A stretch of 64,000 nt of DNA, from positions 64,180 to 128,179 of the forward strand of contig JBHPFA010000002.1 of the NCBI GenBank assembly GCA_042572295.1, given 5' to 3'. The notes under the pieces were generated by a model. That model searched no databases. It was not told where the DNA came from and saw only the letters and a list, made by a program, of their open reading frames with translations. Shown in pieces: positions 36,701 through 57,403 of this stretch. The stretch's first letter is position 1; the number at the start of each line of letters is the position of its first letter. This DNA is from Nanobdellota archaeon (lineage in GTDB: Archaea; Nanobdellota; Nanobdellia; Pacearchaeales; JAHJTO01). The position numbers and the translations under genes were made by a program.

Positions 36701-37690
36701 ATGAAAGTTGTAATTAATGGTTTTGGAAGAATTGGTAGACAGTTTTTTCAGGCTGCTTTGGAACAGAATCTACCCGTAGAATTTATCATTAATGGTATCT
36801 CTAATCCAGAGAATGCAGCCTACCTTTTAAAATATGATTCTGTTTATGGGAAGTCTAAGTTGAGTGTTCATGTTTCTAAGGGTGATTTGGTTATTGGAAA
36901 ACATAAAATAAAGGTTTTGAATGAAAGAGATCCTAAAAAGTTTCCTTGGAAAAAATTGAAAGTGGATTTAGTTATTGAGTCCACTGGGAAGTTTAGATCT
37001 AAAGAATTGGCTATGGCTCATGTTAATGCGGGTGCAAAGAGGGTGTTGATTACTGCAACTGCAAAAAATGTTGATGCACTTATTGTTCCAGGAATCAATT
37101 CTAAAACTTTGAAAAAAGAACATAAAGTAATTTCTATGGCTTCTTGCACTACAAATTGTGTTACTCCCATGTTTAAGATAGTTGATGATGTTTTTGGAAT
37201 TAAGGAAGGATTCATGGTTACTGCACACAGTTATACCTCTTCACAAAGACTTGTTGATGGAACTCATAAAGATTTTAGGAGGGGAAGGAGTGCTGCGAAT
37301 AATATTGTTCCAACAAGTACAAGTGCAGCAGATGCTGCCGCGAAAGTTTTGCCACACTTAAAAGGAAAACTTGATGGATATGCATTAAGAGTCCCTGTTG
37401 TTGATGGTTCTGTAGTTGATTTGAGTATAGAAGTTAAGAAAAAGCCAACTGTTGATAAAATAAATAATGCTTTTAAGAAATTTTCAAATGGAAAATTAAA
37501 AGGGATTGTAGAATATTCGAAGGAACCTTTAGTCTCTACAGATATTTTAAGGAATTCTCATTCATGTATTTTTGATTCTTTATTAACAAAAGTCAGGGGT
37601 AATCTGATTAATATTGTTGGATGGTACGATAATGAGTGGGGCTACTCTTCAAGATTGGTTGATATTGTAAGGATAATTAAAAAACTTTAA
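36701..37690 (+). CDS. gap: Glyceraldehyde-3-phosphate dehydrogenase, type I (bacterial/eukaryal class)
   Basis: INGFGRIGR, active site ASCTTNC and WYDNEWGYS are class I GAPDH hallmarks, not the archaeal class II. Confidence 0.92.
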   Translation: MKVVINGFGRIGRQFFQAALEQNLPVEFIINGISNPENAAYLLKYDSVYGKSKLSVHVSKGDLVIGKHKIKVLNERDPKKFPWKKLKVDLVIESTGKFRSKELAMAHVNAGAKRVLITATAKNVDALIVPGINSKTLKKEHKVISMASCTTNCVTPMFKIVDDVFGIKEGFMVTAHSYTSSQRLVDGTHKDFRRGRSAANNIVPTSTSAADAAAKVLPHLKGKLDGYALRVPVVDGSVVDLSIEVKKKPTVDKINNAFKKFSNGKLKGIVEYSKEPLVSTDILRNSHSCIFDSLLTKVRGNLINIVGWYDNEWGYSSRLVDIVRIIKKL

Positions 37691-37703
37691 AGAGGAATAA
37701 AAA

Positions 37704-38858
37704 TTGAAGACTCTTGATAGTATTGATGTAAAAGGCAAGGTTGTTTTAGTGAGGGTGGATCTTAATTCTTCTGTTGTTAAAGGTAAAGTTTTTGATTCTC
37801 CAAGATTCAAAGCGCATTCTGAAACAATTAAAGAGCTAAAGAAGAAGAAGGCCAAGGTAATTATCTTGGCACACCAAGGAAGGCCTGGCAATAAGGATTT
37901 TTTAGGTTTGAAGAAACATGCTAGGATATTGAATAAATATGTCAAGGTTAAATTTGTTGGTGATGTGATTGGAAAAAAAGCTTTGAGAGCAATTTCCGAA
38001 TTAAAAAATGGAGATGCCTTACTTTTAGATAATGTAAGAAAATTGAAAGAGGAGTTTAAACCTTCAAATAGGAATAAACTAGTCAAAGTTTTATCAAAAG
38101 TTTCAGATATTTATGTGCAAGATGCTTTTTCTGTGGTGCATAGAAATCAAACTTCTGTTGTAAGTTTTCCAAAATCTCTTCCTCCCTATGTTGGAAGGAC
38201 TCTTGAGAGAGAATTGAAGTCTCTCAGTAAATTAAAAGCTTCTGGGAAAAAGTCAGTTTATCTTGTTGGTGGAATAAAGATTGGAGAAGAGTTTAGCTTG
38301 ATTGAAAAAGCGATTAAGGAAAATAAGACTGTTCTTACTGGAGGATATCTTGGATCGCTATGTTTAATTGCTAAAGGGTATGATGTTGGTTCTTTAAGCA
38401 AAGTTTTGCGTAAGAAGGGAGAATACAAATATCTTTCAAAAATAAAGAAGTATATCAAAAGTGGCAAACTTGTTTCCCCTATAGATATTGCAGTGAGTAT
38501 CAATGGAAAAAGAAAAGAACTTTCCTTATCAGCTCTTCCAACAGATTACCCTATCTTAGACATAGGGAAGAAAACTGTAGGGCTTTACAAAGATTATCTC
38601 AGAAAGGCGAATTTTGTAGTCATAAGGGGTGCTCCCGGTTATGCTGAGCTTAAGAATTTTAGATGGGGAACTGAACAATTATTAAGAGCAATCGCCTCTT
38701 CAAACTCTTTTTCCATTATGGGTGGAGGAAGTTTATCTACCATTGTCAAAGAATTAAGAATAAATACTAAAAGATTCTCCTATATTAGTCTTGCAGGGGG
38801 CGCTTTTGTTAGATATCTAGCAGGAGAAAGACTTCCAGGATTAGAGGTGTTAAAATGA
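37704..38858 (+). CDS. pgk: Phosphoglycerate kinase (archaeal type), TTG start
   Basis: VRVDLNS, ILAHQGRPG and GGGS...AGGAF. TTG start with agagga 7 nt upstream. Confidence 0.9.
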   Translation: MKTLDSIDVKGKVVLVRVDLNSSVVKGKVFDSPRFKAHSETIKELKKKKAKVIILAHQGRPGNKDFLGLKKHARILNKYVKVKFVGDVIGKKALRAISELKNGDALLLDNVRKLKEEFKPSNRNKLVKVLSKVSDIYVQDAFSVVHRNQTSVVSFPKSLPPYVGRTLERELKSLSKLKASGKKSVYLVGGIKIGEEFSLIEKAIKENKTVLTGGYLGSLCLIAKGYDVGSLSKVLRKKGEYKYLSKIKKYIKSGKLVSPIDIAVSINGKRKELSLSALPTDYPILDIGKKTVGLYKDYLRKANFVVIRGAPGYAELKNFRWGTEQLLRAIASSNSFSIMGGGSLSTIVKELRINTKRFSYISLAGGAFVRYLAGERLPGLEVLK

Positions 38859-39640
38859 AATATTCAATTGGAGTAGATATTGGTGGAACAAAGATTGCAT
38901 GTGGTTTAGTTGATTCTAAAGGAAATCTTAGGAAAAAAGTTTTGTATAAAACTGGAAAGATTAAGAAAGAAGCCTTGAATAGAATCAAGAAAGCAGTCTC
39001 TTTGTTGCTTGAAGGTGTAAGGGATGATGTGAAAGGGATTGGAGTAGGAATTCCTGGAACAATTAGTAAAACTGGAAAACTTGACGATCTTCCAAACTTA
39101 AGAATTCTTGAAGGAACAGATTTGGTTGGATTTTTGAAAAAGAGTTTTAAGAAAAAAGTAATTATGGAAAATGATGCTTCTTGTGCAGCACTTGGAGAAT
39201 ATAAATTTGGAGTTGGTCGTGGTGTAAAGAATTTATATGTGGTGACTTTAGGAACTGGAGTTGGTGGTGGTGTGATAATTGATGGAAAACTTTATACTGG
39301 GAGAGGAAATGCTTCTGAACCAGGACATATGTTAATTGGAAAACAAGAATGGGAAGATGTCTGTTCTGGTAAGGCGTTAAGTAAATTCCTTAAAAAAGGT
39401 GAAAAAAGAGGTTATGAAGATTATTCTTATTATTTGGGAATCGGTTTGAGCAACATAATCAAATTATATGATCCTGAATTGATTGTTTTAACTGGAGGTG
39501 TTACAATTCGAAAAGATTATTTTTTGAAAAAAGCAATTAAGGTAGCTAAGCAAAACACTTTCTTTCCAATCTGTGAGATTAAGGCTTCTAACTTTCCAGA
39601 AGACATAGGTATTATCGGTGCAGCAGCCCTTATCTTTTGA
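38855..39640 (+). CDS. ROK-family sugar kinase (glucokinase-like)
   Basis: GVDIGGTKIACGLVD, ENDASCAALGE, LGTGVGGGVI and EPGHM. ATGA overlap with the pgk stop. Confidence 0.8.
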   Translation: MKYSIGVDIGGTKIACGLVDSKGNLRKKVLYKTGKIKKEALNRIKKAVSLLLEGVRDDVKGIGVGIPGTISKTGKLDDLPNLRILEGTDLVGFLKKSFKKKVIMENDASCAALGEYKFGVGRGVKNLYVVTLGTGVGGGVIIDGKLYTGRGNASEPGHMLIGKQEWEDVCSGKALSKFLKKGEKRGYEDYSYYLGIGLSNIIKLYDPELIVLTGGVTIRKDYFLKKAIKVAKQNTFFPICEIKASNFPEDIGIIGAAALIF

Positions 39641-39953
39641 TATCTTGGGCTTCAATTTCTAATTTTCCGTAATATTCATCTACTTTTCCTATTACTTCTA
39701 ATTTATCTCCTTTTGAGATCTCTAATCTTTGGAAAGAGACTACTCTTATGGATCCGCTTTTGTCAGATAGGTCAAAATAATTGCCCTTTTGGCCGATACT
39801 CATTACTTCTCCAGACACTTTAACGAATGAGTCAATGGTTGATTCATCAATTTCAGAGATTTCCTGCGTTTTTGGCTCTAAATAGTAGGCTAAAACTGCT
39901 AAAATAAGGGTGCCAATTAAGGCAGTAATCAGTGCAATTTTGGCTATTCTCAT
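39630..39953 (-). CDS. Membrane-anchored OB-fold protein
   Basis: N-terminal TM helix, then VKVSGEVMSI...IRVVSF...DKLEVIGKVDEYYGKLEI (tRNA_anti-like OB pattern). Confidence 0.55.
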   Translation of the reverse strand: MRIAKIALITALIGTLILAVLAYYLEPKTQEISEIDESTIDSFVKVSGEVMSIGQKGNYFDLSDKSGSIRVVSFQRLEISKGDKLEVIGKVDEYYGKLEIEAQDIKR

Positions 39954-40013
39954 ACATAGTTCGTTTTAATCAAAAGATTTAAATAGTTGTTATCACGCTG
40001 TAATGAATACAAA

Positions 40014-41918
40014 ATGGTCAAAAAACTAGATTATACATCTAATGCCCTAAAAAAGGCAGTTAGCGACGATAAGCCAGCAGATTCTGCCTTTAAGGGGTTG
40101 AAAAAGGCAGCTTTAGCGGCTGGATATGGGCTATCTTTATTCATAAGTTCTTTGGCCCCAGCAGCAAATGCCCTGGCAGAAGACTTCAAGAATGCTGGAG
40201 AAATCTTTGATAATATTCAGTATTCTTATGATAGTATTGTTAATATGGCAGTTCAAAAGGGATGTGATGAGAAATATCTTGAAAAAAGTATTAGTTGGTG
40301 GTCAAATGACTTCCTGAAGACCAATCCAGGATACTTAGATAATTTACCAGATAGCGAAAAAGAGTCTTTGAAGGATATATTACAAAATCATGGTAAGGCT
40401 CTTAAAAAGAAATTTGATGTTGCTTGTCCTCAAGTGGGAGAATTATCAGAAACTGTTCCTGTACCAGAACCTAAGAAAAAGGAAGTTCCAAAAGCAAAAC
40501 CTCAAGAAGACTTAGAAGAGAAAGTAAAGGCTATTGAACCTAGGGAAGATCCCACTCCTCAAATACCTAATTATTTTATTCAATCCTCAAAATATGAAGC
40601 TCAAGGTAAGGCCTTGATGAATGAAAGTCCAAGAAGGGCTAAAAAGTTGTTCAAGAAATCTCTAAAGTTACTTTCAAAAGATAAAGGTGGAGACTACTCT
40701 AGCACTAAAAAAGAATTGTTAGAATCTATCGAAGACTGTAATACTTTGGTTAGTGCAGAGAGATTAAGTAATACCTATAAAAAAGTTGAAAATCATATTA
40801 CAGAAGCAAATAATGCTAAAATGCCGGAAAAGATATTAAAACATTTCAAAAAGGCATTAAAAAGTTTAGAAAGAATCGGAGATCAAGGGGGAAAGTATGA
40901 TTCTCTTAAGACACAGTTAGAAGATGAAATTAGTTATTATGATGATGCAGCAAAAGGTGATCCTAAAAAAGAAAAAGAAAAGAAGGATACTATTTTTGCT
41001 AAGGTAGATAGATTAGGAGACAGAGTCTTGGATAGAAAAGGAACTTTCAAGAAGTATGGATCAGATTTATCAAGATATGCTGGAAGGGCTGGACCAAATA
41101 GGTTTGGGGCTGGATGGCTTAAGAAAAGAATTGAAACAGGAACTATAGCAACTTTTCGTGGACCATTTATTGATTTGAGATTACATCCCGATCTTCATAA
41201 ACTTTTGGGAGCGGATAGAAAAGGTGAGGAAAATCTAATTTCAGAAGTTGATTTAACTTACAAAACTTTAGGTGGTAGTTTAGAGAATATTACTGGTGCT
41301 AATGCAAGTCTTAAGGACTTGTTATTTAAGTTCAAATTAGGATTTGATCTTGGAAAACCTAAGGGAGAGGTTAAAAACACTTATATCAGGGCCGCAGTGG
41401 GATATTTTTATAATAGTCAAAATTTAGATGTTGAAATGTCTAAATATAACCTTGAGACTAATAGAAGTGTAAGCAATGAAGGAGCTGTACTGTTGCTAGG
41501 TCTAAGAGGAAAGAATTGGAACTTGACTTTGGAAGATATGTTGAGTACAAAGATGACTACAAGTGACCAAGTAAAGATTGATAATGAAGTAACTTACTCA
41601 AGCAAGGATCTTAAATCAAACGGGAATCAATTCTCTTTAGCATTTGAGTATTCTCCAAAACACAGTCTTTATTTGGCGACAAATTTTAACATGTCTAATT
41701 TTTCATATGCTTTATCAAGTCAAGAGACAAAAGAATTGGGATTCGAAGTTGGAAAGAATTTTGCATTAGATAAGAAGATTTTGGGTTCTCAACCAGTAAT
41801 TATTAGACCATCAGTTTACTGGCTAACTACTAAGTATGACAGTACGGATGATAATTCTGGAAAGGGTAGTGCGAAAGAATTTGGGCTTAAGCTAAATTAT
41901 GTTTTTGGAAACAAGTAA
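40014..41918 (+). CDS. Secreted/envelope protein with helical-repeat middle and beta-rich C-terminal domain
   Basis: Signal/anchor-like h-region with AxA (LFISSLAPAANA-LAED), an internal duplication (KKLFKKSLKLLSKDKGGDYSS / KHFKKALKSLERIGDQGGKYDS) and a C-terminal ~250 aa with alternating hydrophobic strands ending ...EFGLKLNYVFGNK. ATG at 40014 preferred to the TTG at 39987. Confidence 0.5.
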   Translation: MVKKLDYTSNALKKAVSDDKPADSAFKGLKKAALAAGYGLSLFISSLAPAANALAEDFKNAGEIFDNIQYSYDSIVNMAVQKGCDEKYLEKSISWWSNDFLKTNPGYLDNLPDSEKESLKDILQNHGKALKKKFDVACPQVGELSETVPVPEPKKKEVPKAKPQEDLEEKVKAIEPREDPTPQIPNYFIQSSKYEAQGKALMNESPRRAKKLFKKSLKLLSKDKGGDYSSTKKELLESIEDCNTLVSAERLSNTYKKVENHITEANNAKMPEKILKHFKKALKSLERIGDQGGKYDSLKTQLEDEISYYDDAAKGDPKKEKEKKDTIFAKVDRLGDRVLDRKGTFKKYGSDLSRYAGRAGPNRFGAGWLKKRIETGTIATFRGPFIDLRLHPDLHKLLGADRKGEENLISEVDLTYKTLGGSLENITGANASLKDLLFKFKLGFDLGKPKGEVKNTYIRAAVGYFYNSQNLDVEMSKYNLETNRSVSNEGAVLLLGLRGKNWNLTLEDMLSTKMTTSDQVKIDNEVTYSSKDLKSNGNQFSLAFEYSPKHSLYLATNFNMSNFSYALSSQETKELGFEVGKNFALDKKILGSQPVIIRPSVYWLTTKYDSTDDNSGKGSAKEFGLKLNYVFGNK

Positions 41919-41919: not shown

Positions 41920-44900
41920 ATGAATAATTTAATGAAGAAATTAGTTATGGTATTTGTATTATTAATGGTAATTCCAGGAGTTTTAGCTTTAGGCATTTCT
42001 CCAGCAACTCCAGATACTACAGATGGTCTAACTTGTACTGGGGGAGAACAGGGATTTACTTACAAATGGTTCCATAGTTCAGTTGCAGATCCTAATTATC
42101 TAGATAGTGGGATAAGCTTACTTCCAACCCAGACTTCAAAAGGTTTAACGATTTTTTGTCAGACTTATTTTGACCTTCCTCTTGGAGGGGGTTCTGTTCC
42201 GGGAGTCTCTACAAGTATTGTGATAGGGAATGCACCACCTCTTGCTCCAGTAGTTTCATTTATTGGAGAGTCTTATTTTGCTAATTCTGCCATTAATGTT
42301 TTTGCTAATGCTACAGATCCAGATAGTGATCCTAAGACTTACTATTATACTTTCAGAAATCAAACAGCAGTATTGCAAACAGGTACTTCGAACACTTATG
42401 CCTGTTCATGGCAGAATTGTACAAAACATACAAACATTAGTGTAGAAGTTGCAACTTTTGATGGAACTGATTATTCTCTTACAAACACTACAAATTTATC
42501 CTTAATATTAAATTCAGCACCAGTTATTTCCTCATTTGTGCCTGTTAATCCAAATCTTTACATTTATGAGTTACTTAATGCTTCTTTGACTGTTACAGAT
42601 GCAGACAATGATTCTTTAGCAGCTATTTTCCAATTTTATAATTTTAATTCTTCAACTATAGTACAAGCTTTTTCAGGCGTAAATGCATATAGTCTTGCTT
42701 TATCTGATGCACATGATACTATTGGAGTTACAGTTAATGTTAGTGATCTAGATGCAGTTCCTACTCAGAGTTTCTTTAATTTGACAGTTCTTAATAGCGA
42801 TCCTATTTGGAACCTGTCAAGTGTAAGCTTTAATCAAGGTCAAACCCTTTTCCTTAATTTAAGTTTGAATGGTAGCGATTCAGATGGTGATGCTTTAAGC
42901 TTTAGTAGAGTGGATCCAGCAAATGTTACTTCAACACTTAATGGGGATAACTTGACAATTAGTTCAATAGGAAATTTTGCAGGAACACAGAATATTAACT
43001 TGACTGTTACAGATGCTTATGGGGGATCTTTGAATTATAGTTTACCAGTTACAGTTATTGATACAGGAGATCCTTTTGTGAATATTACTTCTCCAGTGGA
43101 TGGTTTTGAATATAATACTACTTCAAGAAACGCTACAATCAATTATACAATAAATGATAATGGTGTGTTAGACACTTGTTGGTATGTATCTAATTTTAAT
43201 GGAACTAATAATGTTGCTTGTGGCGGAAACTCCTTGAATTTTTATAATCTAGCTGATGGGAATTATAACTTTACTTTATTTGCAAATGATACACTGAATA
43301 ATGAAGCAAATGATACTTTGAGTTTCTCAGTATCATTAAATGATGCCCCTATTTGGAATTTGTCAAATATCAGTTTTGATCAGAATACTTCTTATTTCCT
43401 TAATATGAGTTTGAATAGTAGTGATCAAGATGGAGATCCTTTAACTTATAGTTCAGTTAGTGCAGCAAATATAACTGCAACTGTTAATGGAGATAATTTA
43501 ACAATTACACATGATACATTGTTTTTGGGAGCTCAAACAGTTAATTTGACTGTAAGTGATGGAACTTTAAGTGCTACTCAAGTTGTGTTAGTTACAATTT
43601 TAGATGCAGAAAATCCTTTTGTAAATATTACTTCTCCAGCCCTTTGGACTAATTATACCTCTACAAAGAATGTTACTGTTAATTATACTATTACAGATAA
43701 TGGTAATTTGAGTGCTTGTTGGTATAGTTTGAACGGTGGAGCGAGCCAAAGTCTAAATTGTAGTGGAAATTCTTTCAATTTCACTAACATGGCTGATCAA
43801 AACCATTCAGTTGTGGTGTATGCTAATGATTCAAGAAATAATCTTGGAAGCGATATTGTGAACTTTACAGTTGATTTTAATACAGTTCCGAGTGTTTCTT
43901 CAGTCATTTTGAATTCAGGGGCTAGAACAGCTGATGATTTAATTTGTAATTTTACATTAACAGATTTAGAACAAACTGCCTCTGATGCTTTAACTGCAAA
44001 TTATACTTGGTTTAAGGATAATGTTGCTGATTTGAGTGGAACAATCACAGCAACTAATGGAACTGCTAAGTGGATTACTCTTGATTCTGGAAATACTAGT
44101 AAGGGAGAAAATTGGACTTGTCAAATAACTTCTTTTGATAATAAAGAATATGGAAGTGTTTTGAACTCAAGTGGTTCAGTAATATTGAATACTGTTCCAG
44201 TATTGAATACAAGTATTTCAGATCCTTCTCAACCTTGGTTACAAAATACTAACAAATCAATTGATCTTACTGATGCATTCTCAGATGTTGATGGGGATGA
44301 TTTGAATTATACTGCTTCAGTTGCGCAAAACATAACTGCCTATATAGACAACTCAACAAATATGGTTATTCTAGAGCCAGATGTAGGATTTAGTGGTGTG
44401 AGGACAATTAACTTTACTGCGTGGGATGATGAAGATGGGAATATCACTTCTTTAAATGTTAACTTAAATGTAGGGGTTAGCACAATAATTGATTCTTTCA
44501 TAGCAGGAACTAATTATTCTGGAACTTTCTATCTTTCAAATGTAACTGGAGTGACTGTATCTACAATTAATATATCAAATGTTACAGGATCACCACTTAC
44601 TGTGTATAATTCTACTGTATTCAATTCAACTATAATTGATTCTGAGTTGTTTAATTGTATTGTTCTTGATTCAAGATTAGAAGGAATGTTCTGTTCGGAT
44701 GCTTTTATTGACCCTTCAGATGTTAAATATAGCAATATCACTGGAAGTAATATAACAGATTCTCACGTTTGGTATAGTAATGTGACCTATTCTAATGTAA
44801 GTCTTTCAAGTATCGATAATTCAACTGTGACAGGTGCCAATGTTAATGATTCTAATGTAAGCTTGTCTATAGTTACTGGAGATTCCAATTTAGAGAATGC

Positions 44901-46362
44901 AATAGTTATTCTTTCAAATTTAACAGATACAAATGTAACTGATTCAACATTAACAAATGTCACAGCAATTGGTTCAACTATATTTAATTCAACAATTGCC
45001 AATAACACTTTGAACTTTGCAAATGTTTCTAATGGTGTGCTTTACAATGGAACTATGTTGTTACAGAATGGATCAGTCTATAATGCTTCTGATGTTGGCC
45101 AACAAAATTTAACAAGTTTGGTTAATTCTCCCCCTATTGCGAATATTTTTGCTCCTTTAGACTTAAGCAGCCATGATAATGGTGTTACAATAGTGTTTAA
45201 TGCAACTGGAAGTACTGATGTGAATATTGGTGGATTATTGGCTGATAATATTACTTATAATTGGGACTTTGGAAATGGTGTAAGTGTCAATACGACTAAT
45301 GTGACTCATTCCTATACTTATACTGTAGATGGGCCTTATAATGTTACTTTGACAGTTACTGATAATTATAATGAAACAGATACGGATATGATTGGTATAA
45401 CTGTTTCTACCCCCGTTGTACCTCCAATAATTCCTGGAGGAAGTCCTGGTGGAAGTACAAATGATAATGGAGAAGAAGTAACATTATCTAAAGGACAGAC
45501 TAAAAGACTTTCTCAAAATGGATATATTAGATTTAAGTTCTTAAATGAGTTCCATAAAGTTACATTAGAGAGGATTTATTCTGACTTTGTTAAAGTTAAA
45601 GTAGAATCTACACCACAAACTGGAATATTGAAAGTAAATGATGTAGGAAAGTTTGATTTGAATGATGATGGAACGTATGATCTTAAACTTACACTTACAA
45701 AATTAACCTCTTCAATTGCTACATTCAGATTTGAATCAACATCTGAGAAGATTGTAGTAGATGAGCCTGAACCAGAAGCAGAAGCAGGAAATGAAACAGC
45801 TGAGGAAGAACCTGAAATAGAAGAAGAAAAAGAAGAAGGCAAGATTAGCAAATGGTGGAATACTATTACTGGAAAAGCGAGTTCTAGTTGGAATAGTGCT
45901 AAAGAGTTTTCAATCCATGAGAAGTTTAAGAACTTCTGGACTTGGTTAAAGGAGAAATTCAGTAAAGATGAAGTAGAAGCAGGAAATGAAACAGCTGAGG
46001 AAGAACCTGAAATAGAAGAAGAAAAAGAAGAAGGCAAGATAAGCAAATGGTGGAAAAATCTTACTACGAAAGTAAAAGACTTTACTTCAAAAGTAAAAGA
46101 CTTTTTATCCAACAATAAGAAAAACTTAATCCCTGCTGCTATAGGGGTAGTTGTTCTTGGATTCTTAGGATGGGTCTTATTCAAATTAAAGAAAGGAAAT
46201 CAACCAGTTAAATCAAAAGTCAGACCTCTTGTTGGTGGGGAGAAAGAAGTCCCAGTAGAAAAGAAAAAGAAATGGAAAAATCCAATTAAAGTTGTGGGCA
46301 ATGCTATAAGAAATAGTTTGGTTAAGGTTTTAGAAAAGCTATTAAATAAATTAAAAAAGTAA
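41920..46362 (+). CDS. Giant (~1480 aa) cell-surface glycoprotein/adhesin with Ig/cadherin-like repeats, beta-helix-like region, PKD domain and C-terminal TM anchor
   Basis: Signal peptide MNNLMKKLVMVFVLLMVIPGVLALG and very many N-x-S/T sequons. A ~180-aa two-domain unit is repeated (DPIWNLSSVSF.../APIWNLSNISF...). PKD-like NWDFGNG...YNVTLTVTD; anchor AAIGVVVLGFLGWVLF plus a basic tail. The ATG lies 2 nt after the upstream stop. Confidence 0.75.
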   Translation: MNNLMKKLVMVFVLLMVIPGVLALGISPATPDTTDGLTCTGGEQGFTYKWFHSSVADPNYLDSGISLLPTQTSKGLTIFCQTYFDLPLGGGSVPGVSTSIVIGNAPPLAPVVSFIGESYFANSAINVFANATDPDSDPKTYYYTFRNQTAVLQTGTSNTYACSWQNCTKHTNISVEVATFDGTDYSLTNTTNLSLILNSAPVISSFVPVNPNLYIYELLNASLTVTDADNDSLAAIFQFYNFNSSTIVQAFSGVNAYSLALSDAHDTIGVTVNVSDLDAVPTQSFFNLTVLNSDPIWNLSSVSFNQGQTLFLNLSLNGSDSDGDALSFSRVDPANVTSTLNGDNLTISSIGNFAGTQNINLTVTDAYGGSLNYSLPVTVIDTGDPFVNITSPVDGFEYNTTSRNATINYTINDNGVLDTCWYVSNFNGTNNVACGGNSLNFYNLADGNYNFTLFANDTLNNEANDTLSFSVSLNDAPIWNLSNISFDQNTSYFLNMSLNSSDQDGDPLTYSSVSAANITATVNGDNLTITHDTLFLGAQTVNLTVSDGTLSATQVVLVTILDAENPFVNITSPALWTNYTSTKNVTVNYTITDNGNLSACWYSLNGGASQSLNCSGNSFNFTNMADQNHSVVVYANDSRNNLGSDIVNFTVDFNTVPSVSSVILNSGARTADDLICNFTLTDLEQTASDALTANYTWFKDNVADLSGTITATNGTAKWITLDSGNTSKGENWTCQITSFDNKEYGSVLNSSGSVILNTVPVLNTSISDPSQPWLQNTNKSIDLTDAFSDVDGDDLNYTASVAQNITAYIDNSTNMVILEPDVGFSGVRTINFTAWDDEDGNITSLNVNLNVGVSTIIDSFIAGTNYSGTFYLSNVTGVTVSTINISNVTGSPLTVYNSTVFNSTIIDSELFNCIVLDSRLEGMFCSDAFIDPSDVKYSNITGSNITDSHVWYSNVTYSNVSLSSIDNSTVTGANVNDSNVSLSIVTGDSNLENAIVILSNLTDTNVTDSTLTNVTAIGSTIFNSTIANNTLNFANVSNGVLYNGTMLLQNGSVYNASDVGQQNLTSLVNSPPIANIFAPLDLSSHDNGVTIVFNATGSTDVNIGGLLADNITYNWDFGNGVSVNTTNVTHSYTYTVDGPYNVTLTVTDNYNETDTDMIGITVSTPVVPPIIPGGSPGGSTNDNGEEVTLSKGQTKRLSQNGYIRFKFLNEFHKVTLERIYSDFVKVKVESTPQTGILKVNDVGKFDLNDDGTYDLKLTLTKLTSSIATFRFESTSEKIVVDEPEPEAEAGNETAEEEPEIEEEKEEGKISKWWNTITGKASSSWNSAKEFSIHEKFKNFWTWLKEKFSKDEVEAGNETAEEEPEIEEEKEEGKISKWWKNLTTKVKDFTSKVKDFLSNNKKNLIPAAIGVVVLGFLGWVLFKLKKGNQPVKSKVRPLVGGEKEVPVEKKKKWKNPIKVVGNAIRNSLVKVLEKLLNKLKK
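45781..45859 (+). repeat. 79-bp intragenic direct repeat, copy 1
   Basis: gaagcaggaaatgaaacagctgaggaagaacctgaaatagaagaagaaaaagaagaaggcaagat[t/a]agcaaatggtggaa; one mismatch to 45976-46054. Encodes EAGNETAEEEPEIEEEKEEGKISKWW. Confidence 0.9.
45976..46054 (+). repeat. 79-bp intragenic direct repeat, copy 2
   Basis: See copy 1. The offset is 195 bp (65 codons, in frame). Confidence 0.9.
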
Positions 46363-46399
46363 ACGATAACTTTATAATTCTTAATTCTCCGGAGTGATT

Positions 46400-47788
46400 A
46401 TGTATTTCCATGTATTATTAGGAACAGAATGCAATTCTCAATGCAGATATTGTTATACTAAGAGCTGCAATGATTTTGGAAACGATCTTTCCAAGAAATT
46501 TAAAATAGATTTCTCAATGCCTCCAAAGCTTGAGTATTCTATTGAAGATTTGAAGAAGTTTGTTAAAGCTGAAGAAGGAAAAAGTCCTCATGTATTGACT
46601 TTTTATGGTGGAGAGCCTTTAATGCATATAGAAAAGATAAAAGAGACTATGGATTCTATTGATGCGAGGTATATGATTCAGACTAATGGGTTGTTGTTAG
46701 ATAAGTTGGGTAAGGAATATGTCAATCGTTTTGATATTATGCTTATTTCCCTTGATGGAGATAAAGCGATAACTGATTTTAATAGGGGCAAAGGAACTTA
46801 TGAGAGAGTCATGAAGAATATTGATTTGATTAAGAAGAATGGATTCAAAGGAGAGCTGATTGCAAGAATGGTGGTTGATGAACATTCTATGTTGTCAAAA
46901 CAAGTAAAACATTTAGTTGATGTAGGATTTACCTCTATTCATTGGCAATTGGATGCAGGGTTTAAGGTGAAGATTCTTTTGGCTGATATTCATGGGGCAT
47001 TAGATAATACTCCTTGGGATGTTTTAGAGAGAAGATATGGTTATTATGAAGCAGTTATTCCGACATTGATTAAATCAATGGGTGTAGATATTAAGGATTT
47101 GGAGATTGTTAAGGGAAGCACTTTTCAATTAAAGAAAGAATTTATGTATGATGTTTTAAGATTTTCAACATTTGCTTCAATGCATGATACTCATAAAGCT
47201 GCATCAGAAGTTGTTAAGCAAGGAGATAATCCAAAACTTGCTGGTTTGATTTATCCAGTAATGCAAGCTTTAGATGAGGTTTATTTAGAAGCTGATGCAC
47301 AACTTGGAGGAACAGATCAAAGAAAGATTTTTGTTTTAGCAAGAGAGACTTTGCCTAAGTTAGGGTATAAACCTAGGGTAGAAGTTATTAATCCTTTTAT
47401 TCCAGGACTTATTGGGAAGAAGATGTCTTCTTCTATTGAGAAATCTAAGATTGATTTCTTGGATGATGAGAAGACCGTTTTGGAAAAAGTGAAAAGTGCA
47501 GATTTTGTTGCAGGAAGTTCAGATAATGGAGTTATGGCCTTTTTGAAATATATTGTTTTTACTCTTAAAGGGGATAAAAAAGAGAAGTTTGTTATTGAAA
47601 GGCCCGAAAAGTACGGAGGGAATTTAGAATTCTCTAAATATGAAGAAGTTGAGAAATTAGTTCTTGATAAAAAGATACATCCTCTTGATTTGAAGAATGC
47701 TGTTGCTAAAGAAGTAAATAATTTATTGGTTTTATTCAGAAAAAATAAAGCAAAATTTGAAAAATTAGCTAAAATAGCTTATAGTTAA
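46400..47788 (+). CDS. Chimeric ORF: radical SAM core (N-terminal ~187 aa) fused in frame to an N-terminally truncated archaeal-type tyrosyl-tRNA synthetase
   Basis: CNSQCRYC (46430-46453), FYGGEPL and radical SAM core strands. From about 46961, KVKILLADIHGALDN..., IYPVMQALDE, GGTDQRKI, KMSSS (47420-47434), RPEKYGGNLEF and HPLDLKNAVA match TyrRS. The HIGH motif and first ~60 TyrRS residues are absent. Confidence 0.7.
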   Translation: MYFHVLLGTECNSQCRYCYTKSCNDFGNDLSKKFKIDFSMPPKLEYSIEDLKKFVKAEEGKSPHVLTFYGGEPLMHIEKIKETMDSIDARYMIQTNGLLLDKLGKEYVNRFDIMLISLDGDKAITDFNRGKGTYERVMKNIDLIKKNGFKGELIARMVVDEHSMLSKQVKHLVDVGFTSIHWQLDAGFKVKILLADIHGALDNTPWDVLERRYGYYEAVIPTLIKSMGVDIKDLEIVKGSTFQLKKEFMYDVLRFSTFASMHDTHKAASEVVKQGDNPKLAGLIYPVMQALDEVYLEADAQLGGTDQRKIFVLARETLPKLGYKPRVEVINPFIPGLIGKKMSSSIEKSKIDFLDDEKTVLEKVKSADFVAGSSDNGVMAFLKYIVFTLKGDKKEKFVIERPEKYGGNLEFSKYEEVEKLVLDKKIHPLDLKNAVAKEVNNLLVLFRKNKAKFEKLAKIAYS

Positions 47789-48207
47789 TTAAAAAGATTT
47801 CTTGGATTAGTAGTTTGTTGTGGAGGGTTTAAATCTTTTCTCCATTTTTGAATTAATTCAAATGCTTCTAATTGATCCATCTTTAATTTGTCCCTTAGAT
47901 GTGTGAGGGTTTCACCTTCACCCTTTTTTTGTTCCTTGAATAGTTGTTCAAGTTCTTCTTTAGGGATTACTCTGTTCTTTTCTTCCCAAGCTAAACGTTT
48001 TGGAGTTTTTGCCCCACATTCAGGACAGAAGTTTTCAGTTCCATTCATTTCTAGGCTACAACCCTTACATAATTTTGGAAGTTCTGTCTTTTTTTCTATG
48101 ACTGTTTTGTATCCTGCACGGTTTCCAGAAACAAGTTTGGAAAAAGCATCTGTTATGACTCCTTCCTTTTGATACTGTCTTAAATCCCTACAACTTCCAC
48201 CACTCAT
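47785..48207 (-). CDS. Zinc-ribbon protein (140 aa)
   Basis: CKGCSLEMNGTENFCPECGAKTP (CxxC...CxxC) plus a helical C-terminal half. Confidence 0.5.
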   Translation of the reverse strand: MSGGSCRDLRQYQKEGVITDAFSKLVSGNRAGYKTVIEKKTELPKLCKGCSLEMNGTENFCPECGAKTPKRLAWEEKNRVIPKEELEQLFKEQKKGEGETLTHLRDKLKMDQLEAFELIQKWRKDLNPPQQTTNPRNLFN

Positions 48208-48278
48208 TTTAATGCAAGATTATTAGATAATTTGACTTATTTAAAGTTTATTGTATTTTCTAATTTCCCGACGAAGGA

Positions 48279-49190
48279 TTATCTTAAATGGAGCTCTACA
48301 ATGTCTTTATCCTTTAATCTATGTTCTATACCCACACCTTGTCCGGGGAATTTTGCAGATTTTCCCCAGATTTTTGCAAATTTAAATTTTCTTAGGAAAT
48401 CTTTATGGACTTTGCTGGCCATGTCTTCTATTTTTGATCCTTCATTTAGAACTAATGGCTGTTTTGTGTGTTCTTTTCCCGGCTCTTTTGTATATACTCT
48501 TATCAGTTCAAGGTCTTCAAATATCTTCTTTTTTAATTCGTCTAGTCCTTCTCCAGTTTTAGCAGAAATTTTAAACGCATTCTTGAATAAAGATAATTTT
48601 TTTATTTCACTTTCTGGAAGAATGTCTGATTTATTTATTAGGAATATTTTTGGAGTAAAAGTATTTTCTTTTTTTAAGTAAGTTGAGATTTTGCTTAATT
48701 CTGGAAGAGATGTTGCTAATATCAAAACAATTTCTGCAACCTTTGCAACACTCAACCATTCACGAAAATCTTCTCCTATTGTTAATGGTGGAAGCTCTAC
48801 TGTTTGAACATTTATTCCTCCAAGGTTTAAAGTTCCAATCTCTGGTTTGGTTGTTGTGAATGGATAATCTTCTATTTGGGGTTTGGCATTTGTTAATTTA
48901 GTTAGGAGAGTACTTTTTCCAGAATTTGGAAAACCAATTATTACTATTTGAGCATCTCCTTCTTTTTTAACACCTGTAGAACGACCTCTTTTTTTAGTGC
49001 CTTCTTTTTTTAATTCCTTTTTTAATTTTGATAATCTGCTTCTTAGTCCTGCAAGCAAGTTTTCAGAACCTTTGTGTTTTGGGGCATGCTTGATCATCTC
49101 TTCTAATCCAGCAATTTTTTCTTCTGTTGTTATGGCGGCTAGGAATTGCTTTGAAGCCACACCATATTCAGGTCCTGCGTTAATTGGCAT
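48279..49190 (-). CDS. Obg/DRG-family GTPase with C-terminal TGS domain
   Basis: G1 GFPNSGKST, G2 FTT, G4 NKSD and the TGS-like IRVYTKEPGK...GQGVGIEHRLKDKDIVEL. Confidence 0.85.
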   Translation of the reverse strand: MPINAGPEYGVASKQFLAAITTEEKIAGLEEMIKHAPKHKGSENLLAGLRSRLSKLKKELKKEGTKKRGRSTGVKKEGDAQIVIIGFPNSGKSTLLTKLTNAKPQIEDYPFTTTKPEIGTLNLGGINVQTVELPPLTIGEDFREWLSVAKVAEIVLILATSLPELSKISTYLKKENTFTPKIFLINKSDILPESEIKKLSLFKNAFKISAKTGEGLDELKKKIFEDLELIRVYTKEPGKEHTKQPLVLNEGSKIEDMASKVHKDFLRKFKFAKIWGKSAKFPGQGVGIEHRLKDKDIVELHLR

Positions 49191-49202
49191 AGAAATATGA
49201 TT

Positions 49203-49357
49203 AGGAGCCCATTGATAAATTTAACGTTGTTACTCAGTTATCTCTTTTTTGCTTGTTTTGTCTCTTTCAGCTGGAAGGTTTCTTTTAATTTTCTCTTTAA
49301 GGCTAAGTTACTGCGGTTTAGTCGGAAATGCTTGTCTTCTGCGTTATCTGGGCTCCT
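49203..49357. repeat. 155-bp element bounded by 14-bp terminal inverted repeats
   Basis: AGGAGCCCA-tt-GATAA (49203-49218) pairs with TTATC-TGGGCTCCT (49344-49357). It could be a long hairpin RNA or a MITE-like element; it overlaps the likely promoter of the GTPase gene. Confidence 0.5.
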
Positions 49358-49454
49358 TTATTGTTTTACTAACTGTTTATTTCAAACTTAAAACTCCTTT
49401 TATCTATTTTCTCTAAATCTCCTAATATCTGCTGTTTATGTAGGAGCATGAATC

Positions 49455-49710
49455 TTCCAAAAAAGTGATTTTGAAGATATTTGCATCTAAGCAAAACATA
49501 AAGATACATTGCGTAGTACATCCTTGAGGGTATTAGCTGAGGCATTCTAAACCTTGAAGATAAGGGGAGGCGACTGGATAAAATTTACCAGTGAGAATTA
49601 AGACGTAGTCTCCGCTATCCTCTTCAGTTTCACTCTCAAGAAAAACCTGGATTGGGTCCATGAGCATGATTTCCCTTAGCCCGTGGATCCCTCCAGCTAA
49701 CTTCTTTTTT
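49455..49710. ncRNA. Candidate structured non-coding RNA (unassigned; RNase P RNA is one hypothesis if read on the minus strand)
   Basis: No credible ORF. Hand count gives about 44% G+C over 49501-49700 against AT-rich flanks. A long-range helix pairs TTAGCTG(A)GG (about 49533-49542) with CCTCCAGCTAA (about 49690-49700). T-runs lie at both ends. On the minus strand, a TATA-like tataaata lies ~23 nt upstream and there are GAGAGTGAAAC / GGAGGGATCCACGGGC motifs. Confidence 0.35.
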
Positions 49711-49822
49711 CAATACGTTTAAACTATTTATATCCTCTGAAAAGGGGTTGTTACTCGAGAATTAAGGCATTTGATGTTAAGGCTAAAATAGGTTTTAAAT
49801 ACCTTTTTGGTCTTAAATCTTG

Positions 49823-51049
49823 ATGCCAAAAGTGGATAAATTCTATAGGCAGGTTTTGCCTAATGGTCTAAAAGTTATCTTTGAAAGGAGAGATATTCCA
49901 TTAGTTGTGACTATGGCTGCTACTAAATTTGGTTCTGGCTATGAGCCTGCTGGGATTAAAGGGATTGCTCATTTAATGGAGCATACTGTTTTTAGGCGTA
50001 CAAAAACAAGGACTTCTCAAGAAGTCACTTCTTTGATTGAGAATCAAGGAGGGAAGCTTAATGCTTTTACTGATGATACTATAACTGCTTATTATTCTAA
50101 ATTAAGGTCTGATCATTTTGAAATAGGTATGGATGTGATTTCTGATATTGCTCTTAATCCTGCTCTAATGAAAAGAGATATGGATATGGAGAAAAAGATT
50201 GTTTTGCAAGAGATAAAGATGAATCACGATAATCCTGCAAGGCATGCTTTGCATAAATTGATTGAACAACTGTATGCAAATCCCTTTGGGATGTCTGGAT
50301 TAGGGACTCCTGAGACTGTTTCAAGGATTACTAAGACAATGATGCAGAAATATCATAGTATTTACTATAGTCCTTCAAATATGGTCATGTCTGTTGTGGG
50401 GAAAGCAGAGGTGGATCATATCTGGAATTTGTCTAGAAAGTATTTTATGAAGAAATCAGTTCAAAGGCAGATTGATAAAATACAAAAGCCTACAATTAGT
50501 GCTGGGCCTTTTGGAAACTATATTGAAAAAAGAAGAGAAATGGATCAAGCACATGTAATGTTGGGTTATCATATGCCTACTTTACAAAATAAATTAAGAT
50601 ATGCTGCTGAGATTTTTAATAATATTCTGGGATGTGGGTTCACTTCTAAATTGTTCCAACAAATTAGGGAGAAAAGAGGCTTGGCTTATGCAGTCTATAG
50701 CGATGTTTCTCAAGATGTAGATTATGCTTTAGGATATATCTATATGGGGACTGATAAAGAGAAAGCTGATTCTGCCACTAAATTGGCTCTGGCTGAATTA
50801 AAGAAGATGCAGAAGATTGATATTAAAGAAGTGAATGAGGCTAAAGAGAGATTGATTGGAAAGTATGCCTTGAAGAATGAGAATAGTGAAGATGTTGCTC
50901 TGAATCTGTTGATGGAAGAGCTGAATGGGGACGGAAAGAATTATTATAAGTATGTTGCAAATGTTTCTGAAGTTAAATTAGAAGATGTTAGACAAGTTGC
51001 GAAGATTGCTCAAATTGCTTCTTCTATGATTCTCCCAGAAGATAAATAA
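49823..51049 (+). CDS. M16-family (pitrilysin/insulinase-like) zinc peptidase
   Basis: Inverted zinc motif HLMEH plus a downstream E, and a two-lobed M16 layout. Confidence 0.88.
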   Translation: MPKVDKFYRQVLPNGLKVIFERRDIPLVVTMAATKFGSGYEPAGIKGIAHLMEHTVFRRTKTRTSQEVTSLIENQGGKLNAFTDDTITAYYSKLRSDHFEIGMDVISDIALNPALMKRDMDMEKKIVLQEIKMNHDNPARHALHKLIEQLYANPFGMSGLGTPETVSRITKTMMQKYHSIYYSPSNMVMSVVGKAEVDHIWNLSRKYFMKKSVQRQIDKIQKPTISAGPFGNYIEKRREMDQAHVMLGYHMPTLQNKLRYAAEIFNNILGCGFTSKLFQQIREKRGLAYAVYSDVSQDVDYALGYIYMGTDKEKADSATKLALAELKKMQKIDIKEVNEAKERLIGKYALKNENSEDVALNLLMEELNGDGKNYYKYVANVSEVKLEDVRQVAKIAQIASSMILPEDK

Positions 51050-51050
51050 A

Positions 51051-51593
51051 ATGCGTTGTTTTATCTCAATTGACTTGCCAAAAGAGTTACAATTAGAGTT
51101 AGCGAGAGTTCAAAAAGAAATTGAAGATATTGATGTTAAGATGAATTTGGTTGATACAGATAAGATTCATCTTACAATGAAATTTCTTGGAGAATTAAAT
51201 GATTTGCAGGTTGAAAATGTTGTCAAGGTTCTAAAAGAATTGAGATTTAATAAGTTCAAGGCTAAATTAGAGAGGATTGGTGTGTTTCCTAATGCAAGTT
51301 TCATAAGAGTTGTTTGGTTGGGTGTTAAGCCAAGGGAAGAATTCGTTAAGATTCATGATAAGATTGATCATGAACTGCATCAAATTAGATTTAAGAAAGA
51401 TCAAATCTTTGAAAATCATGCGACTTTATCAAGAGTTAAGTGGCTGAAAGATAAAACAAAATATTTTGAGAAACTTCATAAAATAGAGGTTAAGCCTTTG
51501 GAATTTACCGTCGACAAAATTCATTTAAAGAAGTCCACTTTAACTGAGAGTGGACCTATCTATGAGGATTTGTTTGTTTTAGAATTGGATTGA
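51051..51593 (+). CDS. thpR: RNA 2',3'-cyclic phosphodiesterase (2H family, ThpR/LigT-like)
   Basis: Two H-x-T/S-x motifs: HLTMKF and HATLSR. Confidence 0.88.
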   Translation: MRCFISIDLPKELQLELARVQKEIEDIDVKMNLVDTDKIHLTMKFLGELNDLQVENVVKVLKELRFNKFKAKLERIGVFPNASFIRVVWLGVKPREEFVKIHDKIDHELHQIRFKKDQIFENHATLSRVKWLKDKTKYFEKLHKIEVKPLEFTVDKIHLKKSTLTESGPIYEDLFVLELD

Positions 51594-52496
51594 TTTTTGG
51601 AATTTCTCTTTTCCAAGTTCTTTTAAGTATTTTATTCTTTTTAAGTGGGCTATGTAATACCACCTAAGAGGTTCATCTAGTCCCCAAACAAAATATCTTA
51701 ACATTCCAGACATTATTGCTTCATATAAATGGGACTTTTCCCATTCTGTGAGTTTTCTTTGACTTTCATAGCCTTTTAATATTGATTTTAATAATTTTTT
51801 ATTTCTTATGCCAATAGTTAAAGTCATTCCCAAGTCAAATAACATAAATCCTCTATTAATTTCATCCCAGTCGATTACTTTGTAGACTTTATTTCCTTTA
51901 AACTTTACATGTTCAGTAGTGAATTCTTCGTGACATAGTGCTTTTGGTTGGTTTTTTGGAATTTTAAAATCTTTAAGAAATTTTTCTGCGTATATCTTTA
52001 ATTCCTTTAAAAGTTTTGGAGGATTTTTATGATGGTTTTTGCTTTTATTGAATAATCTTAAATAAAATTCTGGTCCTTTGGTGGAGCGAAATCTTGAACT
52101 TTTAGTTAATTTGTGCAGTCTTCCAAGTGTTTTTCCAAATTCATAGGCTTGTATGGTGGGCCTTTTTGTATGTTTAATACTTATGAATTCAAAAATTGCC
52201 ATAGGCTTTTTCTTGTATAATAGGTAATTATTTTTCTTTTTAGTTTGAATAATCTTTATAGAGGGGTAATTCTTTTTTTCTAAGAAATGTAACAGCTCCA
52301 ATCCCCTTTTTATACATTTAAAGTCTTTCCAATATGTTTTTAGAAAATATTTTCCTTTAGAAGTTGTTATTATGAAACAATCTTGTGCACCAGTGTCTTC
52401 CCTAGTTATCTGTTTTGTTTTCTTGAACTTTCCAAGATTGTAATTTTCAAGTATCTTATCAAAGTCTTGTTTTTTCATTTTACTTTTTTTGTCCAA
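51579..52496 (-). CDS. Aminoglycoside/choline-kinase-like phosphotransferase (APH fold)
   Basis: N-lobe pattern (FIITTSKGKYFLKTY) and a catalytic-loop-like CHEEFTTEHV...VIDWDE. The loop deviates from the canonical HxDxxxxN. Confidence 0.55.
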   Translation of the reverse strand: MDKKSKMKKQDFDKILENYNLGKFKKTKQITREDTGAQDCFIITTSKGKYFLKTYWKDFKCIKRGLELLHFLEKKNYPSIKIIQTKKKNNYLLYKKKPMAIFEFISIKHTKRPTIQAYEFGKTLGRLHKLTKSSRFRSTKGPEFYLRLFNKSKNHHKNPPKLLKELKIYAEKFLKDFKIPKNQPKALCHEEFTTEHVKFKGNKVYKVIDWDEINRGFMLFDLGMTLTIGIRNKKLLKSILKGYESQRKLTEWEKSHLYEAIMSGMLRYFVWGLDEPLRWYYIAHLKRIKYLKELGKEKFQKSIQF

Positions 52497-53259
52497 TATA
52501 GTAGTCAGTGTAATATTTCTTTTCCTTATTTAGAACATAGATTCCAGATTCAAGAGTTTTGAAATGTTTTTTGAATAAATCTTCTCCGAAATGTCCGAGG
52601 ATGGCGATGACTCCACCATTTTTTAGGTATTTTTTTATTTTCCCCAAGCTTTTATCTAATTCAGATCTTTTGAAGTAAGAAGAACTTCCAAAAGAAAAGA
52701 AACTTGTTATCAAATCGTATTTTTTATTTAATTTTAAGTTTCTTACATCTTGTTTTGAGAAGGAACATTTTTTCAGCCCTTTCTTTTTCTTAGCATAGTT
52801 TAACATTCCTTGAGAAAAATCAATTAAAGTTGTTGGATGAAATCCTTTTTTAACAAACATTTCAGTTATAATCCCAGTTCCTGCGCCCAGATCTAATAAG
52901 TTTCCTTTATTTTTGTATTTACTTACCTTACTTAGCAAGAATTTTCCAGCATTTAGATTATGTTTTCCTTTTATTATACTTTTATCATAATCGGAAGCCC
53001 ATTTATCATAGAACTTTTCCATTTCTTTCTCAGTGTAATTAACTGGAAGAAATAATCCTTGGGGCAAGTATACTTGATAACGTTGAATTCTCTGTCCTTC
53101 TTGGCCTTTCTTGCCTAAATGGACCATTATAAAAAAAGTATCTTTTGGAACACCTTTTATTTTGATCCAGGCTGGACGTCCTTTAGACTTTTTATCATAT
53201 TCTACTCTAAGAGGATATTTTTTTGGATCTACTCCTTTGTATAGTTTTCTTAATTTCAT
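52480..53259 (-). CDS. Class I SAM-dependent methyltransferase with N-terminal extension
   Basis: Motif I LLDLGAGTGIIT and post-I LIDFS. Confidence 0.75.
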   Translation of the reverse strand: MKLRKLYKGVDPKKYPLRVEYDKKSKGRPAWIKIKGVPKDTFFIMVHLGKKGQEGQRIQRYQVYLPQGLFLPVNYTEKEMEKFYDKWASDYDKSIIKGKHNLNAGKFLLSKVSKYKNKGNLLDLGAGTGIITEMFVKKGFHPTTLIDFSQGMLNYAKKKKGLKKCSFSKQDVRNLKLNKKYDLITSFFSFGSSSYFKRSELDKSLGKIKKYLKNGGVIAILGHFGEDLFKKHFKTLESGIYVLNKEKKYYTDYYIGQKK

Positions 53260-53261
53260 TT

Positions 53262-53912: not shown

Positions 53913-53951
53913 TGAATAGTCAATTGATTAAGGCTTTTTATGGTTTCTGTT

Positions 53952-57401: not shown

Positions 57402-57403
57402 AA

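Follow-up and report, generated by a model that had tools for sequence, protein, structure and literature searches.

The gene at positions 40014 to 41918 (+) of the 64,000-nucleotide stretch analysed here (the window; contig JBHPFA010000002.1, positions 64,180 to 128,179, of the Nanobdellota archaeon assembly GCA_042572295.1) raises the question of what an archaeon does with an exported protein that ends in a long run of beta strands, and in particular whether that end is a closed, porin-type beta-barrel, as a preliminary description of this DNA had proposed. The open reading frame (ORF) is uninterrupted from ATG 40014 to TAA 41916-41918, and its product of 634 amino acids (aa), designated P0001, contains all seven strand peptides quoted in that description. 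The gene is followed directly by that of a giant surface glycoprotein. From the comparisons given below, P0001 would be the smaller of the two subunits in a cell-envelope module of two genes, confined to one genus-level Woesearchaeota-type DPANN lineage, and its strand-rich end is tentatively read as a peripheral docking domain.

Protein family and beta-rich module

An exhaustive phmmer search, in which P0001 was the single query against 1.84 billion representative proteins, recovered a sole relative, P0002, of 649 aa (E 1e-96), which is 34% identical over the full length and 43% identical in the beta module. P0002 is encoded on two short metagenome contigs (L002 and L003), in a neighbourhood made up of PGK, a ROK kinase, a divergent membrane-anchored OB-fold gene, P0002, and a 1193-aa Big_9/PKD protein. 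Because sequence searches of 60 related genomes with P0001 returned no relative, the orthologue of the giant glycoprotein was used as the search handle. Directly upstream of it in a genome of the same genus (G001, locus L046) lies a 698-aa ORF, P0003, which is built like P0001: its signal peptide is followed by a long helical stretch and a strand-rich tail of ~290 aa. The C-terminal domains of P0003 and P0001 align locally at z=8.1, a score reached by 0 of 500 shuffles; the tail was also aligned by blastp (E 1.6e-4, 29% identity over 150 aa) and by hhalign (E 0.011, colinear across 181 columns), and the strand motifs of the two proteins match one to one, as in QFSLAFEYSPKHSLYLATNF and RFSLSGQVSPVESLTLGLNY. 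The N-terminal halves of the two proteins could not be aligned (z ~1), save for a common MIT/TPR-like hairpin motif. As judged from these alignments, the beta module is the conserved core of the family and the helical half diverges fast. The beta-rich C-terminal module that had been described after the helical half is thus present, and P0002 and P0003 carry homologous strand-rich tails.

In the window, the module occupies 41091..41918 (+; residues 360-634, including the stop codon 41916-41918) and is a basic, all-beta segment of ~275 aa that contains no Cys. DSSP assignments on AlphaFold2 (AF2) models of low predicted local distance difference test (pLDDT) scores, together with the alignment, point to ~12-14 amphipathic strands of 7-12 residues each, joined mainly as hairpins. 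The isoelectric point (pI) of the module is 9.3, 9.3, and 9.7 in P0001, P0002, and P0003, respectively, despite identities of 23-43%, and N-x-S/T sequons show no enrichment in the three proteins (7, 2, and 7 observed versus 4.7, 7.3, and 6.4 expected). Tandem Ig-like domains were considered as an alternative architecture; the module has no internal repeat (z<2) and is therefore not a string of such domains.

Pfam, NCBIfam, and PDB sequence searches of P0001 gave no significant match, and word-index searches with the protein, a two-sequence profile, or a C-domain profile returned the query alone or nothing. No further family member was obtained by pattern scans of genome and metagenome contigs or by a hidden Markov model search of 24 syntenic PGK loci in other DPANN metagenome-assembled genomes (MAGs). 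Profile searches of 400 genomes of the order, using the two-sequence alignment (A2), P0003, and a three-member alignment that includes P0003 (A3) as queries, produced chance matches only. No paralogue of P0001 was found in its own genome, and P0001, P0002, and P0003 are each singletons in a collection of 15 billion proteins.

An orphan with two relatives only, after a search of ~1.8 billion representative proteins, could be a chance or decaying, non-functional ORF. That explanation is highly improbable, since three intact, full-length orthologues of 634-698 aa are present in different organisms, share their architecture, their position, and a conserved promoter, and show significant conservation of the C-terminal domain. 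On this comparative evidence the P0001 gene is real and constrained. Within the locus it evolves faster than any other gene: in comparisons of the window with L002/L003, identity is 68% for the ROK kinase, 57% for the OB-fold protein, 49% for PGK, 45% for the giant glycoprotein, and 34% for the product of the P0001 gene.

Pairing with the giant surface glycoprotein

The gene downstream of P0001 (41920..46362, +) encodes a protein of 1480 aa with a pI of 4.3, Big_9/PKD domains (Pfam), and a C-terminal transmembrane (TM) anchor. It carries 89 N-x-S/T sequons versus 34.6 expected, and the orthologues as a group carry 66-89 versus 29-35 expected, which amounts to a 2- to 2.6-fold enrichment. The whole-protein pI is 4.1-4.3 in all three orthologues, and that of the stalk, computed for the window copy only, is 4.6. 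The stalk (residues ~1240-1400) contains two near-identical acidic repeats, EAGNETAEEEPEIEEEKEEGKISKWW, at 45781-46054 of the window, a putative site for docking of the basic beta module.

Orthologues of the giant glycoprotein gene lie directly downstream of P0002 and P0003, and the pair is kept in all three carriers. The G001 copy (42-46% identity) is the only clear orthologue among the genomes searched. The two genes are separated by a 1-nt gap in the window and by 61 nt in L002, and they overlap by 11 nt in G001. The same-family genomes G002 and G003 have neither gene. The pairing is regarded as conserved because all three members of the P0001 family stand directly upstream of giant-gene orthologues. 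In G001 the pair is found in a neighbourhood different from that at 36701-39640 of the window, with unrelated upstream genes, and no ROK kinase is detectable anywhere in that genome; the two-gene module thus moves or persists as a unit. The preliminary description had linked P0001 functionally to the giant glycoprotein and had pointed to the distribution of the gene pair in relatives as a check, and the link holds in this distribution, with the pair in 3 of 3 carriers and both genes missing from G002 and G003. It had also placed the end of the gene 2 nt before the giant glycoprotein gene; the stop codon ends at 41918 and the next ATG begins at 41920, which leaves a single base between them. 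We infer that the two proteins work together in the cell envelope.

The gene that follows the giant glycoprotein in L002 (6564-6866) begins with MAKSILRKGLETLALGGILGVVGCATS, a lipobox-like L-x-G-C signal, and its ORF runs off the contig.

Export signal

The predicted signal peptide of P0001 spans 40014..40178 (+; residues 1-55) and consists of a polar n-region, the h-region AALAAGYGLSLFISSLA, and the c-region PAANALA; cleavage is predicted to fall between A55 and E56. The n-region is unusually long, with 30 polar aa. Residues 32-55 (AALAAGYGLSLFISSLAPAANALA|ED) form the only hydrophobic segment of the protein, and this segment ends in an A-x-A site; its maximum over a Kyte-Doolittle 19-mer window is 1.43, which is under the usual requirement for a TM anchor. 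The motif KAALAAGY is conserved in P0002, and sites of the A-x-A type are present in P0001, P0002, and P0003. The features expected of a Sec signal were all found, namely a positive n-region, an h-region of 13-20 residues, small residues at -1 and -3, and no further TM segment. As read from these features, P0001 carries a Sec-type signal peptide, and cleavage probably occurs at A55|E56, which would leave the mature protein without a membrane anchor of its own. The view that the protein is exported is thereby upheld, with signal-peptide features in all three family members. Sequence features of a lipoprotein, of an archaeosortase (PGF-CTERM) anchor, and of a second TM segment were looked for in P0001 and are absent.

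A signal of class III (type IV pilin-like), with cleavage after K-[A/S] so that the retained hydrophobic helix anchors the protein in a membrane or filament, would account for the K-A|A-L or K-S|L-L that stands right before the hydrophobic stretch in all three proteins. We consider it improbable, because the stretch is weakly hydrophobic and rich in S, G, Y, and P, closes with classical signal-peptidase-I sites in all three proteins, and in P0001 is preceded by an n-region whose length is atypical for pilins.

Promoter and genomic context

A perfect archaeal TATA box, TTTAAATA, is located at 39978-39985 (+), 28 nt before ATG 40014, and the adjoining promoter block, TGTTATCAC, at 39988-39996 (+), is kept in the orthologous loci. 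The box and the block are invariant or nearly so across the three loci, in which the start codons align to within 3 nt; the consensus, TTTAAATA followed by TGTTRTCAC, is found at 39978-39996 of the window, at ~925-945 of L002, and at ~8262-8282 of L046. Because the promoter is conserved and the starts of the orthologues align, ATG 40014 is taken as the true start and the mRNA as leaderless or nearly so; an alternative TTG start at 39987 is unnecessary. By this comparison the gene has its own strongly conserved TATA promoter, from which transcription is predicted, and the conserved block suggests a dedicated control element, such as a regulator site or an initially transcribed region. The near-invariance of the block contrasts with the proteins themselves, which have diverged beyond recognition in their N-terminal halves. 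A regulon sharing the promoter block was ruled out, the combined motif occurring only once in the 856-kb genome.

The source genome comprises 0.86 Mb in 14 contigs and is 77% complete. The best relatives of the neighbouring PGK are from Woesearchaeota, Pacearchaeota, and Nanoarchaeota MAGs (43-50% identity), and an archaeal (DPANN) origin, as the preliminary description had assumed for the protein, is therefore supported.

Tests for a porin-type barrel

Sequence statistics were evaluated with control sets from Escherichia coli K-12, consisting of 17 barrels and 31 soluble beta proteins (fimbrial subunits and chaperones, propellers, cupredoxin, jelly-rolls, lipocalin-like proteins, beta-helix, and LptA/C); with the addition of three archaeal giant glycoproteins, the soluble controls numbered 34. 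The density of dyad-amphipathic (alternating) strands was rejected as a discriminator, as fimbrial and Ig-like soluble proteins score like porins. The strand alternation from which a barrel had been proposed cannot tell porins apart from soluble beta proteins, and the module shows no more of it than the latter do. Barrels and soluble beta controls are separated by four finer features: the frequency of hydrophobic-Gly-hydrophobic triplets, the proportion of aromatic residues on the hydrophobic face, that of Gly on the polar face, and the overall aromatic content. A logistic model based on these features and fitted to the first control set classified 95% of a second, independent set correctly and gave scores of 0.60, 0.75, and 0.79 for the three modules; linear discriminant analysis (LDA) of the same features, which is less stable, gave 0.21, 0.89, and 0.27. 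Overall, the logistic scores ranged from 0.52 to 0.79. These values place the module on the boundary between porins and soluble proteins, with a modest lean toward the porin-like side. When applied to the whole proteome of the organism, the classifier lacks specificity outside beta-rich proteins and places the module 74th of 389 ORFs; its output is for that reason treated as weak evidence.

Structure prediction was performed with two-sequence alignments, and AF2 gave no usable fold: pLDDT of the module was ~24 in the full-length model and 30 on average when the module was modelled alone. Foldseek searches with the module model returned noise (TM<=0.15). The isolated C-terminal domains had zero matches in Pfam at E<=10, barrel families included, and the full-length proteins matched Pfam and NCBIfam only weakly (E>=0.007), in each case at families that are unrelated and not barrels. 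Comparison of the family profile with 12 E. coli barrels by hhalign gave scores of 9.7-18, without signal, and none was obtained with soluble beta proteins or giant glycoproteins. In the PDB profile search, the barrel of FecA was the top match of three related queries and the only recurrent one, at an E value of 0.073 with the divergent homologue added and 0.88 before, neither of which is significant. No match to Omp85/BamA (PF01103) was detected in the six-frame translation of the genome, which is 77% complete, and 7 of 7 diderm control genomes matched. Residue F631 of P0001 is fourth from the end (...FGLKLNYVF-GNK) and is replaced by R in P0002, and the last strand of P0003 is followed by 13 more residues.

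The closed porin-type barrel is consequently not established: structure prediction, including that of the module alone, was uninformative and showed no barrel, no outer-membrane-protein family was matched, and no Omp85 was found. The aromatic residue that had been likened to a C-terminal beta-signal is neither terminal nor conserved, and the searches for remote homologues yielded no Pfam or NCBIfam barrel or toxin family, with FecA as the only lead. The statement that no archaeal counterpart had been described agrees with the literature, in which none was found. A possible porin-like (PopA) relative in Altiarchaeales is mentioned in one sentence of PMC12228718, and the openly accessible portions of the literature on archaeal porin-like proteins offered nothing beyond that mention.

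Interpretation of the beta module

The reading we favour, and hold nearly as readily as its contrary, is that the beta module is a peripheral docking domain on the stalk of the giant glycoprotein and/or on the membrane. It is favoured by the conserved basic charge of the module, by sequons that are not enriched, by searches that gave no sign of a barrel family or an insertase, and by a C-terminus that is not conserved. The exported P0001 would be cut at A55|E56, leaving an anchorless mature protein composed of a fast-diverging helical spacer (a Cys-pair domain, a flexible Pro/Lys/Glu linker, and tandem MIT/TPR-like bundles) and a conserved, basic, poorly glycosylated beta module. Lying beneath the glycan canopy, the module would attach to the acidic stalk of the large partner, to an anionic membrane face, or to both, and this docking would keep the helical half in the gap that separates the surface layer from the membrane. 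The module may be a meander sheet that closes into a barrel, and no spanning of the bilayer is assumed.

Several observations weigh against docking. Charge complementarity between the module and the glycoprotein is circumstantial as a sign of binding, and 12-14 long amphipathic strands in hairpins, if they formed a soluble fold, would normally match some known family, yet none matched. Hydrophobic-Gly-hydrophobic triplets number 1.7-2.35 per 100 aa in the modules, with medians of 1.58 in the 17 E. coli barrels and 0.39 in the 34 soluble controls, and only 2 of the latter reach 1.7. The aromatic share of the hydrophobic face is 0.29-0.31 (0.34 in barrels and 0.15 in soluble controls), and the top PDB match is a transmembrane segment of the FecA barrel (residues 556-663) that has the hairpin 'FSPKH..LG' in common with the module. 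The last three observations favour instead a closed outer-membrane-type barrel of 12-14 strands embedded in lipid (the cell's own membrane, an unrecognised outer layer, or the membrane of a host), with the helical part as a stalk, in an architecture like that of an autotransporter or an OmpM/SlpA tether that anchors or positions the giant glycoprotein layer. The long strands in consecutive hairpins, the logistic scores, and the helix placed directly before the module, as in autotransporters, point the same way. Against this, AF2 produced no barrel, a result made weak by the two-sequence input; neither the Pfam and NCBIfam searches nor the hhalign comparisons returned a barrel; LDA gave discordant values on the same features; the classifier was unspecific; 16 of the 17 barrels have a higher overall aromatic content than the modules (0.10-0.11); the aromatic residue near the terminus is not conserved; no Omp85/BamA was found in the incomplete genome; and the module is basic, unlike typical bacterial barrels. 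Moreover, we know of no outer membrane in the archaeal group to which this organism belongs. The barrel, kept alive but unproven by sequence statistics and a non-significant FecA match that lean its way, is in our judgement a substantial possibility, though a more doubtful than probable one. The fuller proposal, that a monoderm-type DPANN archaeon without Omp85 exports an autotransporter- or OmpM-like protein whose 12-14-stranded barrel inserts into its own or a host's lipid layer and tethers the coat through a helical stalk, is possible but likewise more doubtful than probable.

The module could also be directed at a host, as a released or presented beta-pore-forming or membrane-binding domain acting at the site of contact, with its rapid turnover reflecting an arms race. 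The low identity of this gene relative to its neighbours, the loss of any anchor once the signal peptide is removed, and a basic charge that would favour anionic membranes are in keeping with such a device, as is the mostly host-attached habit of DPANN archaea (e.g., PMC11329633). It is nevertheless unlikely, since no match to aerolysin/ETX-MTX2, leukocidin, MACPF/CDC, or any other toxin family was found in Pfam, NCBIfam, or PDB, and the conserved pairing with a structural glycoprotein suits a structural role equally well. The docking, barrel, pore-former, and pilin-signal explanations overlap and are not strictly exclusive.

The locus constitutes a concrete, conserved two-gene surface module, in which a giant anchored glycoprotein is accompanied by a secreted, basic, beta-rich partner with its own promoter. 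If the barrel is real, it would strengthen hints that ultra-small archaea use a type of protein so far regarded as found only in bacterial and organellar outer membranes, the family would add one more, very fast-evolving lineage to an unrecognised archaeal repertoire of porin-like barrels, and the questions would become which membrane is entered and how insertion occurs without BamA. If instead the module is a soluble docking domain, P0001 is an ordinary lineage-specific accessory of the surface layer, and the alternating-strand criterion is a poor flag for archaeal porins.

Helical half and neighbouring genes

The mature protein begins with an N-terminal helical domain (40179..40448, +; residues 56-145) that contains the Cys pair C84 and C138 and a WW motif and was modelled by AF2 as helices at pLDDT 42-58; P0001 and P0002 have C84, C138, W95, and W96 in common. 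A linker rich in Pro, Lys, and Glu follows (40449..40568, +; residues 146-185), assigned by composition and modelled without secondary structure at pLDDT ~30. The duplicated helical-hairpin region (40569..40958, +; residues 186-315) has repeat cores at residues ~205-240 and ~270-305, which align with each other at a score of 67, compared with 29.9 +/- 5.6 for shuffles (z ~6.6), in agreement with the internal duplication noted earlier in the helical region. Residues ~185-315 are the only part of P0001 that was modelled confidently (pLDDT 70-88, from the two-sequence alignment). Foldseek gave this region its best probabilities, 0.7-0.8, to the tandem MIT domain of LIP5, at a non-significant E of ~0.3, and matched TPR proteins as well; P0003 has a weak Pfam MIT match at the corresponding place (E 0.021). 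The modelled hairpins thus resemble tandem MIT/TPR-like bundles in fold type only. A second linker, rich in Lys and Glu (40959..41090, +; residues 316-359), precedes the beta module and includes a helix predicted at residues 318-333 (AF2 DSSP, low confidence).

A small gene for a membrane-anchored OB-fold protein, with tRNA_anti-codon and BOF Pfam matches, is located at 39630-39953 (-), divergent from the P0001 gene. It is kept at the same position in L002 and L003 (57% identity); none was present in the ORF list of G001, in which no search aimed at the OB-fold was made. The protein may be an optional third component of the module. Farther downstream in the window, the ORF at 46394-47788 combines Pfam Radical_SAM/Fer4_12 (residues 8-161) with a class I Tyr/Trp-tRNA synthetase match (residues 181-445). 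Further giant ORFs of the genome were observed on its contig C3 at 41921-58600, 86071-99648, and 102718-113937, all on the minus strand (5559, 4525, and 3739 aa, respectively), and some windows within them combine a high barrel-likeness score with appreciable strand coverage.

Comparison with known systems

To our knowledge, no Woesearchaeota-type DPANN archaeon has been brought into culture, and the cell envelopes of these organisms have not been characterised. Type Va autotransporters and the OmpM/SlpA tethers of diderm bacteria resemble P0001 in the order of their parts, i.e. a signal peptide, an extended part (helical in P0001), a helix, and a C-terminal strand-rich module, here of ~275-290 aa. 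With the autotransporters the likeness is one of part order only, as P0001 has no PF03797 match and scores 13.9 by hhalign against the beta-domain of Ag43. The OmpM/SlpA tethers consist of an N-terminal SLH domain, a coiled coil, and a porin-like barrel, whereas P0001 has no SLH or porin match in Pfam and its helices are MIT/TPR-like hairpins. The hosts of both systems are diderm; that of P0001 is an archaeon in whose genome no Omp85 was found. With FecA, a TonB-dependent transporter (PDB 1kmo/1pnz, residues ~556-686), ~104 positions over several strands align and the hairpin 'F/Y-S-P-K-H ... L-G' is common to both, but P0001 has neither a plug domain nor a TonB box, and no other TonB-dependent receptor in PDB was matched; composition and periodicity could explain the match. 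The tandem MIT domain (N-terminal domain of LIP5/Vta1; PDB 2lxl and 4txr) and TPR hairpins resemble residues 186-315, at E values that are not significant (0.3 by Foldseek, and 0.02 for the Pfam MIT match of P0003). MIT domains are cytosolic binders of ESCRT-III, whereas the corresponding region of P0001 is predicted to be extracellular.

The two-gene S-layer module of the Sulfolobales, SlaA/SlaB, in which SlaB is ordered as beta domains, a coiled coil, and a TM helix, was also considered. Scans of all of Pfam and of PDB matched no S-layer protein, and no direct sequence comparison with SlaA/SlaB was made. In both systems the genes are adjacent and co-oriented, a large glycosylated protein is accompanied by a smaller partner with helical and beta parts, and one subunit is anchored. 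They differ in which subunit this is, since here a C-terminal TM anchor belongs to the large one and the small one lacks an anchor. The arrangement that marks two-component layers, adjacent and co-oriented large and small genes kept in relatives, is found for the P0001 pair in all three carriers, and the locus is described here as a lineage-specific two-gene surface module, the small subunit of which has a beta module that is possibly porin-like.

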